Sequence record: PX104380.1
From: a phage
DNA length: 64,000 bases
Direction: 5' to 3' (one strand)
In this document: piece after piece, positions 1,865-51,839 of the stretch
Layout of the letters: each line of letters opens with the position of its first letter
How positions within the stretch are numbered: the stretch's first letter is position 1
Program-made: the position numbers and the translations under genes
Notes under the pieces: model-generated
Databases searched by the model: none
Told to the model about the DNA's origin: nothing
What the model saw: only the letters and a program-made list of their open reading frames with translations

Positions 1865-3844
1865 ATGACTTTATTATCTCCGGGCATTGAGCTCAAAGAA
1901 ACTACGGTTCAAAGCACCGTGGTTAATAACTCTACTGGTACAGCAGCTTTGGCCGGTAAATTCCAGTGGGGTCCTGCTTTTCAGATTAAACAGGTTACAA
2001 ATGAAGTAGATTTAGTTAATACTTTTGGTCAACCAACCGCTGAAACTGCTGACTATTTTATGTCTGCGATGAATTTCTTGCAGTACGGAAATGACTTACG
2101 AGTAGTTCGTGCTGTTGATAGAGATACCGCTAAAAACTCATCTCCGATTGCTGGTAATATTGAATACACAATTTCTACCCCAGGTAGTAACTATGCAGTT
2201 GGAGATAAAATCACGGTCAAATATGTTTCAGATGATATTGAAACTGAAGGTAAAATTACTGAAGTAGACGCAGATGGAAAAATTAAGAAAATTAATATTC
2301 CTACTGCAAAAATTATCGCTAAAGCTAAAGAAGTTGGCGAATACCCAGCATTAGGTTCTAACTGGACTGCAGAAATTTCTTCATCTTCTTCCGGTTTAGC
2401 TGCAGTAATAACTCTTGGAAAAATTATTACTGATTCCGGTATTTTATTAGCTGAAATCGAGAGCGCTGAAACTGCTATGACAGCAGTTGATTTTCAGGCA
2501 AATCTTGAAAAATATGGAATTCCAGGAGTAGTAGCTCTCTATCCAGGCGAATTAGGCGATAAAATTGAAATTGAAATCGTATCTAAAGCTGACTATGCGA
2601 AAGGCGCTTCTGCATTACTCCCAATTTATCCAGGTGGTGGTACTCGCGCATCTACTGCCAAAGCAGTGTTTGGATATGGACCACAAACTGATTCACAGTA
2701 CGCCATTATAGTTCGTCGTAATGATGCTATTGTTCAAAGCGTTGTTCTTTCAACTAAGCGTGGTGAAAAAGATATTTACGATAGTAACATCTATATCGAT
2801 GACTTTTTCGCAAAAGGTGGTTCAGAATATATTTTTGCAACTGCACAAAACTGGCCAGAAGGCTTCTCTGGAATTTTAACTCTGTCTGGTGGATTATCAT
2901 CAAATGCTGAAGTAACAGCAGGAGATTTGATGGAAGCTTGGGACTTCTTTGCTGACCGTGAATCTGTTGACGTTCAACTGTTTATTGCGGGTTCTTGTGC
3001 TGGTGAATCTTTAGAAACAGCATCTACTGTCCAAAAACACGTCGTTTCAATTGGTGATGCTCGCCAGGATTGCTTAGTATTGTGCTCACCACCGCGTGAA
3101 ACTGTAGTTGGAATTCCTGTAACCCGTGCTGTTGATAACTTAGTCAATTGGAGAACTGCAGCAGGTTCATACACTGATAATAACTTTAATATCAGTTCAA
3201 CCTACGCAGCAATTGATGGCAACTACAAATATCAGTATGACAAATATAATGATGTGAATCGTTGGGTTCCATTAGCAGCTGATATTGCTGGTTTATGCGC
3301 AAGAACTGATAACGTATCTCAGACTTGGATGTCTCCAGCTGGTTATAATCGTGGCCAGATTCTTAACGTTATTAAACTTGCTATTGAAACTCGCCAGGCT
3401 CAGCGCGACCGTTTATATCAAGAAGCTATCAACCCGGTAACTGGTACAGGTGGTGATGGTTACGTATTGTATGGTGATAAAACAGCTACTTCTGTTCCTT
3501 CTCCATTTGATCGTATTAACGTTCGTCGTCTGTTTAATATGTTGAAAACGAATATCGGACGTAGTTCAAAATATCGTTTGTTCGAATTAAACAATGCGTT
3601 TACTCGTTCTTCATTCCGTACAGAAACTGCTCAGTACTTGCAAGGAATTAAAGCTCTTGGCGGAATTTATGAATATCGTGTAGTTTGCGATACAACAAAT
3701 AACACTCCGTCAGTAATTGATAGAAATGAGTTTGTTGCAACATTCTACATCCAACCGGCGCGCAGTATAAATTATATCCAACTTAATTTCGTCGCAACTG
3801 CTACTGGCGCAGACTTCGATGAGTTAACTGGACTTGCAGGTTAA
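1865..3844 (+). CDS. 18: tail sheath protein gp18
   Basis: 659-aa ORF with ATG and SD; size and position as in T4. Confidence 0.95.
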   Translation: MTLLSPGIELKETTVQSTVVNNSTGTAALAGKFQWGPAFQIKQVTNEVDLVNTFGQPTAETADYFMSAMNFLQYGNDLRVVRAVDRDTAKNSSPIAGNIEYTISTPGSNYAVGDKITVKYVSDDIETEGKITEVDADGKIKKINIPTAKIIAKAKEVGEYPALGSNWTAEISSSSSGLAAVITLGKIITDSGILLAEIESAETAMTAVDFQANLEKYGIPGVVALYPGELGDKIEIEIVSKADYAKGASALLPIYPGGGTRASTAKAVFGYGPQTDSQYAIIVRRNDAIVQSVVLSTKRGEKDIYDSNIYIDDFFAKGGSEYIFATAQNWPEGFSGILTLSGGLSSNAEVTAGDLMEAWDFFADRESVDVQLFIAGSCAGESLETASTVQKHVVSIGDARQDCLVLCSPPRETVVGIPVTRAVDNLVNWRTAAGSYTDNNFNISSTYAAIDGNYKYQYDKYNDVNRWVPLAADIAGLCARTDNVSQTWMSPAGYNRGQILNVIKLAIETRQAQRDRLYQEAINPVTGTGGDGYVLYGDKTATSVPSPFDRINVRRLFNMLKTNIGRSSKYRLFELNNAFTRSSFRTETAQYLQGIKALGGIYEYRVVCDTTNNTPSVIDRNEFVATFYIQPARSINYIQLNFVATATGADFDELTGLAG

Positions 3845-3850
3845 TTGATT

Positions 3851-4489
3851 ATGGGGCTTCGGCCCCTATTCTCGAGGAAACAAGTGATTATTTCTAAGTT
3901 TGTTACAATAAAACCAAGAAATCATTCAAAAATGTGGTCGACAATTCTGGGATATAAAGTATCATATCATGATACAGTATCTGTTCCAATAGAATTAATG
4001 CCAAAGAATAGTAATAAAATAGTTGACGCTAAATGTGATTTGTGTGGTACTAAATTTAGTAGAAGCATTCAGCTTTTAAATAGAACACCCACACATGCAT
4101 GTAGAAAATGTAGCATTAAACAAGTTGCTATTAAAAATTCGGAAGTTCAATCTGGAATAAGCAGACCATGGCAAAGAGGCGATAAACATCCTCGATGGAC
4201 TGGTAAAAGAAAAGAGTTTGCATTATATGCTAGTAGAGTTCATTCTATAACTAAGTCAGCTAAAATAAGAAAAATTTGGTCAAAATGGCCAAATGCTGAT
4301 AAAATAGGAGTGTGTGGCGTAGAAGGTGCTTACCAACTCGATCATAAAGTATCTATCAAATATGGATTTGATAATTTAATTCCGCCGGAAATTATAGCAA
4401 GCGTAAAAAATTTAGAAATAATCACTTGGGAATCTAACCGAGAAAAATCAAAAAGAAATAGTGTAGATCTTTGGGATTTACTAGAATGA
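3851..4489 (+). CDS. free-standing HNH homing endonuclease inserted between genes 18 and 19
   Basis: frame open from TTG 3845 immediately after gp18 stop; in-frame ATGs at 3851 and 3932 (true start uncertain); CxxC...CxxC zinc-finger-like pairs and C-terminal HNH-like motif DHKVS..G..N..N; no gene here in T4 as I recall. Confidence 0.6.
   Translation: MGLRPLFSRKQVIISKFVTIKPRNHSKMWSTILGYKVSYHDTVSVPIELMPKNSNKIVDAKCDLCGTKFSRSIQLLNRTPTHACRKCSIKQVAIKNSEVQSGISRPWQRGDKHPRWTGKRKEFALYASRVHSITKSAKIRKIWSKWPNADKIGVCGVEGAYQLDHKVSIKYGFDNLIPPEIIASVKNLEIITWESNREKSKRNSVDLWDLLE
3853..3866 (+). other. RNA hairpin GGGGC-UUCG-GCCCC directly 3' of gene 18, embedding the ATG at 3851
   Basis: perfect 5-bp GC stem with UUCG tetraloop read from sequence; no U-run after it. 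Confidence 0.5.
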
Positions 4490-48352: not shown

Positions 48353-49213
48353 TTATACTGCCATTTTTCCTTTAATTGGCGGGTGAGATACATAGTCGTT
48401 AAGAACAAAATTATGCGGCTTTGCGAATTGACTCAACCAAAATACCTGCGATTCTGTATCCCATTCATCAAATTCATCTGGAAATTTTAATTGTAATTCG
48501 CATAAATCCATAGGTTCACGACGCAAAATTTCTTTACATTGTTCTACGTGATTCATATAGATATGAGTATTACCACCAGAAAATATCAAATCTCCCGGAA
48601 TAAGATTACACATCTTAGCTACAATATGAACTAACGTAGCATATGATGCAATATTAAATGGAAGACCGAGGAAAACATCTACCGAACGTTGATACCACTG
48701 AAGGTCAAGGTATCCATTACGAACATTAAATTGATAGAACATATGACAAGGTGGTAATGCCATCTGCTTGAGTTCAGCTGGATTCCATGCTGAAACAATT
48801 TGACGCCTATCATTTGGCAGTTTTTTAATACGATCAATAACTTCTATAATTTGGTCTACACCACCAAAATCACGCCACTGTTTTCCATAAATTGGACCAA
48901 GTTCACCGCTATGGTATCCTAAATCTTTTGCTTGATTTTCGTAATTTTCATCCCAAACTGTTTTGCCTTGGATTAACGAATCATGTTGAATTAATCGCAA
49001 ATCATTGACATTTGTGCTTCCCGATAAAAACCATATTAACTCAGCAATGCAAGCTTTCCAGGCGAGCTTTTTAGTTGTTACTGCAGGAAAACCTTTAGTT
49101 AAATCCCAGCGTAATTTAGTACCGAACAAAGCAATTGTTCCTGTGCCTGTTCGGTCATCGGTTTCATAACCATTTTCAAAAATGTCTTTAATTAAATCTT
49201 GGTATTGTTTCAT
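48353..49213 (-). CDS. td: thymidylate synthase (intron-less)
   Basis: 286 aa uninterrupted; active-site motif PPCHMFYQF; SD AGGTG. Confidence 0.95.
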   Translation of the reverse strand: MKQYQDLIKDIFENGYETDDRTGTGTIALFGTKLRWDLTKGFPAVTTKKLAWKACIAELIWFLSGSTNVNDLRLIQHDSLIQGKTVWDENYENQAKDLGYHSGELGPIYGKQWRDFGGVDQIIEVIDRIKKLPNDRRQIVSAWNPAELKQMALPPCHMFYQFNVRNGYLDLQWYQRSVDVFLGLPFNIASYATLVHIVAKMCNLIPGDLIFSGGNTHIYMNHVEQCKEILRREPMDLCELQLKFPDEFDEWDTESQVFWLSQFAKPHNFVLNDYVSHPPIKGKMAV

Positions 49214-49228
49214 TTAACACCTATATAA

Positions 49229-49576
49229 TCAATACGGTTTAGCATCAAATTTTCTCTCAATTTCAGGCGTGAAATATAATTCTTTACCGCGTTTGGAAAA
49301 GCGACCAATAATATGATAATTATTCTCATCAAACGTGATATTACCAATATCCATAGCTTTCAACCAAATATCGATATTTCTATCCAGCTTTATGTCAAAA
49401 TTCCAATACGGAGAACTATTACCGAAAATACTGCAAGCGGATTCAGTGAAACAACTGCTATAAATCTTATCTTTAGGAACTACTAATTGATAGACACCTT
49501 TAATAAACTGAGGACCCTGCCACTTTGGCTGTTTCTCGTCTTTTTCTAATAGAATAGGGTAATAATTAAAATTCAT
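49229..49576 (-). CDS. hypothetical protein, 115 aa, inserted between frd and td
   Basis: ATG start; 19-nt and 15-nt spacers to flanking genes; no motif recognised. Confidence 0.6.
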   Translation of the reverse strand: MNFNYYPILLEKDEKQPKWQGPQFIKGVYQLVVPKDKIYSSCFTESACSIFGNSSPYWNFDIKLDRNIDIWLKAMDIGNITFDENNYHIIGRFSKRGKELYFTPEIERKFDAKPY

Positions 49577-49595
49577 ATTTCCGCCACGCGTTATT

Positions 49596-50422
<827 letters not shown>

Positions 50423-50433
50423 ATTATCTCCTA

Positions 50434-50766
50434 TTAAAAAGGATCAGGAACATATCCGCTAGCTTTAATCATTTTAATTAACGTTAACATTCCTTTGTTA
50501 ACTGCTCGTGAGATTTCATCAAAAACTTCATCACTAAAAAGTTCTAACACGCCCTTCTGAACTTTTAATTTACAGCCAACAATTTCTTCATCGCCTATAG
50601 TAAATTCATTACCACCAATTCCACCGAAAAACTTAATTACACCAGTTAACTGTCTTCCACGAGAATATGGGTCGTGTGATAAAGTAATATGAGTCACCCC
50701 GAGTACAGTTTTAAATTGGCAGCGAATATTTACTTGTGAAATTCCAGTTACATGAATGTCAGACAT
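50434..50766 (-). CDS. hypothetical protein, 110 aa
   Basis: SD GAGGA. Confidence 0.55.
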   Translation of the reverse strand: MSDIHVTGISQVNIRCQFKTVLGVTHITLSHDPYSRGRQLTGVIKFFGGIGGNEFTIGDEEIVGCKLKVQKGVLELFSDEVFDEISRAVNKGMLTLIKMIKASGYVPDPF

Positions 50767-51804: not shown

Positions 51805-51839
51805 TTTTGAAATAAAAAAAGGGGACCCTAGAGGTCCCC
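51805..51839 (-). terminator. rho-independent terminator 3' of gene 32
   Basis: hairpin GGGGACC-UCUAG-GGUCCCC (51821-51839) followed by UUUUUUUAUUU. Confidence 0.65.

Follow-up and report, generated by a model that had tools for sequence, protein, structure and literature searches.

Between the genes for dihydrofolate reductase (frd) and thymidylate synthase (td), a phage sequence of 64,000 nucleotides (record PX104380.1; the whole stretch is called the window below) carries a small gene that we conclude is a real, strongly conserved and vertically inherited protein gene of the frd-td unit of T4-like phages. This open reading frame (ORF), here called X, runs from 49229 to 49576 on the minus strand, begins with ATG and encodes 115 residues, the translation opening MNFNYYPILLEKDEKQPKW. 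As an object X is already known, being a hypothetical protein in hundreds of GenBank genomes and a member of PHROG 1928 ("unknown function"). The comparisons described below indicate that phage T4, and not the window, is probably the exception, and that X is not a new insertion. With regard to function, the possibility that we favor, if only tentatively, is that X is an accessory or adaptor, dispensable under some conditions, that serves the phage machinery for thymidylate and deoxyribonucleotide (dNTP) precursors by binding to Frd, to Td, or to a nucleotide or nucleic acid.

Several kinds of evidence establish X as a genuine gene. The copies in the window and in T2 differ by 14 synonymous changes and 1 non-synonymous change (ratio of non-synonymous to synonymous rates, dN/dS, 0.013), those in the window and in the BASEL phage AdolfPortmann by 6 synonymous changes and no non-synonymous ones, and even against a 67%-identical metagenomic relative the dN/dS is 0.12. 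A tblastn search finds an X homologue in 582 phage records, one per genome. In 363 of these the identity is at least 90% (T2, RB32, RB51, RB68, wV7 and AR1 are included), while the other 219, from T4-like phages of Klebsiella, Enterobacter, Edwardsiella, Erwinia, Citrobacter, Serratia and Proteus, fall below 60%; in 349 records a protein 97-100% identical to X sits in the same frd-td slot. RB32 and RB51 label the gene RB32ORF229c and AR1 labels it ar1_242; it is also annotated as Shfl2p237, and the T2 record AY310907 leaves it unannotated. The PHROG 1928 hidden Markov model (HMM) matches X at E 3.1e-36, with residues 4-111 aligned to profile positions 2-125 of 126. A preliminary description, made from the letters of the window, had proposed a separate gene with no recognizable motif, and this is what we find, since sequence searches of Pfam, NCBIfam, PADLOC and the PDB are without a match. 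Literature searches on the X locus tags, the frd-td junction, T-even homing and SegG/T2 brought up no paper with a discussion of it.

The slot is also occupied in other genera of T4-like phages. We inspected nine annotated loci, from Enterobacter phage MY742, Kanagawavirus PEi26, Jiaodavirus, Roskildevirus Cronus, Marfavirus, Moonvirus, Winklervirus CBH8, Muldoonvirus WSPA and a Gelderlandvirus-like Proteus phage. An X homologue lies upstream of td in all nine and directly downstream of frd in eight, the exception being Cronus, in which a larger paralogue of the family, gp170, sits between frd and X; in most cases the start of X overlaps the stop of the gene before it. Many of these loci contain a second gene of about 115-125 residues, here called Y, that is a paralogue of X by blastp, and several have an unrelated gene of 68-70 residues, here called Z, just before td. 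Proteins of the Y kind (Moon gp200, PEi26 ORF-252 and the 142-148-residue forms of the Cronus gp170 type) belong to the same family as X by both blastp and HMM, are encoded at the same locus and share the motifs QKxW, HGxY and GRFxKxG, but have an extra segment of roughly 20-40 residues (PTIxxYKxNP) after the W motif. Y was not found in the window or in any Tequatrovirus locus examined.

Metagenomic assemblies extend this picture. In the relatives nearest to the X of the window (63-66% identity) Y follows directly after X, and one contig (L017) has the full order frd-X-Y-Z-td, while another (L018) stops after Y. A streamlined T4-like phage represented by two Logan contigs (L020, ERR12379738; L021, ERR2184199) has the order rnh-dsbA-33-59-32-frd-X-td-nrdA-(74 aa)-nrdB; this compact block is without the small ORFs frd.1-3 and nrdA.1/.2 and yet retains X, which is the only small ORF kept from rnh through nrdA and which overlaps both of its neighbors. 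A very divergent contig, with a Frd only 30% identical, reads frd-X-X'-(90 aa)-td. Members of the family thus lie downstream of frd and upstream of td in the window, in the other-genus loci and in the metagenomic contigs L017-L021, with one further contig (L022, considered below) as a possible exception, and X has diverged about as much as Frd has (26-63% versus 38-57% identity).

In the window, X, frd and td are all on the minus strand, a point on which the preliminary description was silent. The upstream gene frd (49596..50177) encodes 193 residues, has 95.4% nucleotide identity to T4 frd and reads from MIKLVF at 50177 down to a TGA at 49598-49596; the downstream gene td (48353..49213) is an uninterrupted, intronless frame for 286 residues. 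The spacer between frd and X (49577..49595) is 19 nt long, reads AAATAACGCGTGGCGGAAAT on the coding strand and contains a weak GGCGGA/GGA element resembling a Shine-Dalgarno sequence, while that between X and td (49214..49228) is 15 nt long and holds the Shine-Dalgarno sequence of td, AGGTG. The preliminary description had given the 115-residue ORF, its ATG and both spacer lengths correctly from the sequence, and had rightly called it AT-rich like its surroundings (32.8% G+C, against 36.1% for the window). Scans of the 48-52 kb interval detected no promoter or terminator above shuffle expectation between frd, X and td, and no Rfam match inside the unit. Because no promoter or terminator separates them, the three genes probably form one transcription unit, with X read from the frd transcript.

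Why, then, is X missing from T4? Within Tequatrovirus, a 1.1-kb junction probe distinguishes three types of frd-td junction, with X, with Z, or with neither. The X type is the commonest: in 355 of 528 records the match spans 80% or more of the probe, so that about two thirds of Tequatrovirus records carry X. The T4-type junction gave an uninterrupted match in 25 of 40 cases among the matches listed, all of them T4 or close kin (T4 isolates, T4T, RB55, RB59, vB_EcoM_112, G28, F1, FN and FL12), although the 100-bp junction probe is only partly informative for such counts because BLAST joins pieces across the insert. In T4 itself (AF158101), frd and td overlap by ATGA, as published and as the preliminary description had stated; both the coordinates (frd 3311-3892 and the td end at 3314 in our locus L002) and the alignment agree on this.

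Comparison of the two junctions suggests how the T4 state arose. The window contains two direct copies of the 9-nt sequence TAAATGAAA on the minus strand, identified by exact match and alignment and separated by 386 bp: the first (49594..49602) includes the frd stop (ATGA), and the second (49208..49216) includes the td start codon. T4 has a single copy, with the 386-bp interval removed, and its arrangement is what a deletion of 386 bp between the two repeats would leave. Since TAAATGAAA is a common motif at stop/start junctions (10 copies in the window versus 3.6 expected), the repeat reads as deletion microhomology and not as a target-site duplication. No paralogue of X was found in the 149 of 169 kb of T4 that lie on either side of the late structural genes at 100-120 kb (best E 0.47), and no second copy of X was found in the window. 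Considering the fixed slot across genera, the microhomology repeat, the lack of a homologue elsewhere in T4 and the single copy in the window, loss by T4 seems far more parsimonious than gain by the window. The preliminary description had pictured X as inserted into a junction that leaves no room for a gene. The survey of junctions that it proposed argues otherwise, with T4 lacking X at the site and most T4-like phages, from Tequatrovirus to other genera and metagenomes, carrying the same family there. Its term "accessory" is apt in the sense of dispensable, for T4-type and Sf21-type Tequatroviruses live without X. The frd-td ATGA overlap that is taught from T4 would accordingly be a derived deletion state and not the norm, most T-even-type phages having one to three small genes between frd and td.

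A different account of X has entered the databases: bas44_0069 (BASEL) and VMC04_249 (a Klebsiella record) bear the label "putative homing endonuclease", which would make X a free-standing homing endonuclease or some other selfish insertion. The label has some appeal. Like X, the T-even free-standing homing endonucleases (Seg of the GIY-YIG type, Mob of the HNH type) sit between genes at places where related phages have nothing; X is present in some phages and absent from others at a junction between genes, with a 9-nt direct repeat on either side; and the neighboring td is a classic homing target. However, no GIY-YIG, HNH, LAGLIDADG or other nuclease match was found with Pfam in 20 family members, nor with NCBIfam, and no Asp, Glu, His or Cys column in the family alignment reaches 70% conservation, so that the only invariant charged residue is a lysine (K95). 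At 115 residues X is too small for a nuclease plus a DNA-binding domain, being about half the size of Seg and Mob proteins (the T4 I-TevI, Seg and Mob genes encode about 140-260 residues), and the fold search described below yields no nuclease. The flanking repeat loses its force given how common TAAATGAAA is at gene junctions. Moreover, although polymorphic within Tequatrovirus, X is single-copy in each genome and fixed at one locus across genera, where it diverges at about the pace of Frd, in contrast to the sporadic placement of Seg and Mob genes. In the BASEL paper itself, homing endonucleases come up solely as part of comparative-genomics annotation, with no experimental test of them. We therefore rejected the label on motif, residues, size and fold; a metal-dependent nuclease is excluded by these data, and homing or selfish insertion of any kind strikes us as very improbable.

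The protein sequence itself offers few outside connections. The X/Y family of T4-like phages, as we define it here, appears to be an orphan family found only in phages. Its HMM, run against 1.84 billion representative proteins, gave 54 matches, of which 49 were kept, mostly of 95-148 residues. The remaining five were long proteins (P0046, P0061, P0064, P0066 and P0067) whose apparent link was a repeated C-terminal motif. We discarded them as probably artefacts of repeats or low complexity; P0046 and P0061 are clearly of this nature, and Pfam found no related domain in P0046, P0061, P0066 or P0067. For X itself and for 20 family members Pfam likewise yields nothing even at E up to 1, it has nothing significant for Y or Z, and neither NCBIfam nor PADLOC matches X, Y or Z, the sole listed PADLOC match being an insignificant one (E 0.072) between the 144-residue Cronus paralogue and the JetA model. 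PDB sequence searches with a single sequence and two profiles gave chance-level matches only. The best was to TTR/HIUase (E about 0.1), and a transthyretin/HIUase identity was rejected, no significant sequence or fold match having been obtained.

Within the family, conservation is concentrated in a few positions. Across 62 sequences G91, K95 and G97 are invariant, W19, G27, Y29 and F93 are at least 97% conserved, and L9, Q16, G78 and F102 are 87-89% conserved; members, which are 95-148 residues long, have in common L..(D)..Q.KW, (H/K)G.Y, GN and G(R)F.K.G....F as motifs. AlphaFold2, given the 62-sequence alignment, returned a confident model (predicted local distance difference test 90.0; predicted template modeling score 0.83), and the structure prediction that the preliminary description had called for thus yields a small beta-barrel with one helix: strands are predicted at residues 6-12, 27-34, 62-64, 80-82, 86-96 and 99-104, and the helix at 68-76. 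A fold search of BFVD retrieved only uncharacterized T4-like phage proteins. The order of secondary-structure elements is compatible with an OB-type barrel, a closed barrel of five strands in the order b1-b2-b3-helix-b4-b5, for which the nucleic-acid-binding domains HIN, RecO N-terminal, Teb1/RPA/SSB and S1/CSD served as comparison. X may be a soluble, single-domain, OB-like protein without catalytic residues, one that would work by binding a partner and not by catalysis, although we hold both of these suggestions with low confidence.

One rival explanation is that X, as a small protein of the OB or cold-shock type, binds single-stranded nucleic acid; its target would be mRNA or DNA of the phage, and it might, for instance, regulate translation of the frd-td message or act as its chaperone. 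The predicted order of strands and helix would fit, as would the conserved aromatic residues and lysine (W19, Y29, F93 and K95) and the mildly basic character of the family (median isoelectric point 8.5). On the other hand, the conserved aromatics share the phase of core positions, the net charge is only about +2, and no sequence match to the OB, S1 or CSD families was found in Pfam or the PDB. We consider this role doubtful; it also overlaps both with a link to Frd and Td and with interaction with the host.

The main rival to a link with thymidylate synthesis is that X is a host-interaction factor unrelated to it, a candidate role named in the preliminary description, and is involved in counter-defense or host takeover; a small binder of this kind would block or decoy a host protein and would be kept or lost according to the hosts that the phage meets. 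T-even early regions hold many host-interaction genes, and X resembles them in several respects. Its distribution in Tequatrovirus is patchy (X, Z or none), it is dispensable in T4, it is a small, non-enzymatic member of an orphan phage-only family, and the family has duplicated in tandem, the copies diverging as X and Y. Nonetheless, this role sits less easily with one locus kept across all nine other-genus loci and out to a 30%-identical Frd, unlike most known anti-defense genes, with retention of X in a streamlined genome that has dispensed with other small ORFs, or with strong selection that is purifying and not diversifying. The lack of a PADLOC match also counts against it, if weakly, because that library models defense proteins. 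A typical counter-defense gene turns over fast, and conservation this deep at a fixed position is a poorer fit for such a gene; we regard host interaction as unlikely, though a serious contender.

An accessory that binds within the Frd/Td module is favored instead by the fixed position out to 30% Frd identity, the translational coupling, the retention in the streamlined genome and the Frd-like divergence. X is probably co-transcribed with Frd and Td and, in most genera, translationally coupled to them. A number of observations pull the other way. Nothing ties X directly to Frd, Td or thymidylate (dTMP) synthesis; many small T-even ORFs keep their place in the gene order without a known link to their neighbors; and T4 builds its dNTP-synthesizing complex without X. 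The gene has been lost at least twice within Tequatrovirus, and the td of the window is 97.6% identical to that of Sf21, which lacks X, so that Td evidently needs no X-specific adaptation. The near-invariant Y29 and F93 are in phase with conserved core hydrophobic residues and may be structural only. Finally, the homologue in contig L022 follows genes of the zf-DksA/PnuC type and not frd, the contig ending right after it.

A bolder version of the accessory proposal is that X and Y are an unrecognized, dedicated third component of the phage dihydrofolate reductase-thymidylate synthase module, with a new small beta-barrel fold; they would bridge or regulate Frd and Td, or bind their nucleotide or folate ligands or their mRNA. 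We think this improbable, but its implications are worth stating: the component would have been overlooked for 60 years because the model phage T4 had deleted it. The protozoan and plant enzymes are bifunctional, with a junction or linker region, and by analogy only, with no kinship in sequence or structure implied, they show the same order of reductase, linking element and synthase. The phage arrangement differs in consisting of three translationally coupled genes and not one chain, and the T4 Frd and Td function without X. If X does belong to the machinery of dTMP synthesis, the textbook pathway gains a component; if not, X is one more small T-even accessory ORF. Either way it is a cheap and reasonable target for functional work, being confidently foldable, phage-only and position-locked to two well-understood enzymes, and natural knock-outs (T4 and the Sf21 type) and carriers (T2 and the BASEL phages) allow direct comparison.

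The td gene has a history of its own. It is intronless in the window, while in T4 the gene is interrupted by the group I intron that encodes I-TevI. The window td has 97.6% nucleotide identity to the intronless Sf21 gene, 89% identity to T2 and only 80% to AdolfPortmann, while frd and X of the window are 98% identical to those of AdolfPortmann. Among X-bearing phages td is strongly mosaic. Mosaicism specific to X was considered and rejected, because the low identity to X-bearing records such as AdolfPortmann comes from td; the pattern looks like ordinary T-even recombination. In Proteus phage ABTNLPp2 (L013 3153-5026), which has both X and Y, an element with a gene for a putative homing endonuclease interrupts td, so X and a td intron are not mutually exclusive.

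Some further features of the region deserve mention. The alternative occupant of the frd-td slot, Z (MSNKLKV...), is without a Pfam match and was located in Sf21 (L003 3314-3520) and at L005 3173-3379, L009 3148-3354, L012 2806-3018 and L017 4670-4879. Further matches, with identity of about 43%, come from phAPEC8-like Phapecoctavirus genomes, large myoviruses of an unrelated group, and Z therefore seems to move between phage groups. The sole convincing terminator in the 48.2-52 kb interval of the window is a strong hairpin resembling an intrinsic terminator at 51821-51839 on the minus strand, a short way downstream of gene 32, in which GGGGACC...GGTCCCC precedes a run of T. Between frd.1 and frd (50177-50766, minus strand), where the T4 gap is short, the window has two additional small ORFs. 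One (50434-50766, minus strand) encodes a 110-residue DUF7247 protein; the other (50177-50422, minus strand) encodes 81 residues with no Pfam match, and its stop overlaps the frd start.
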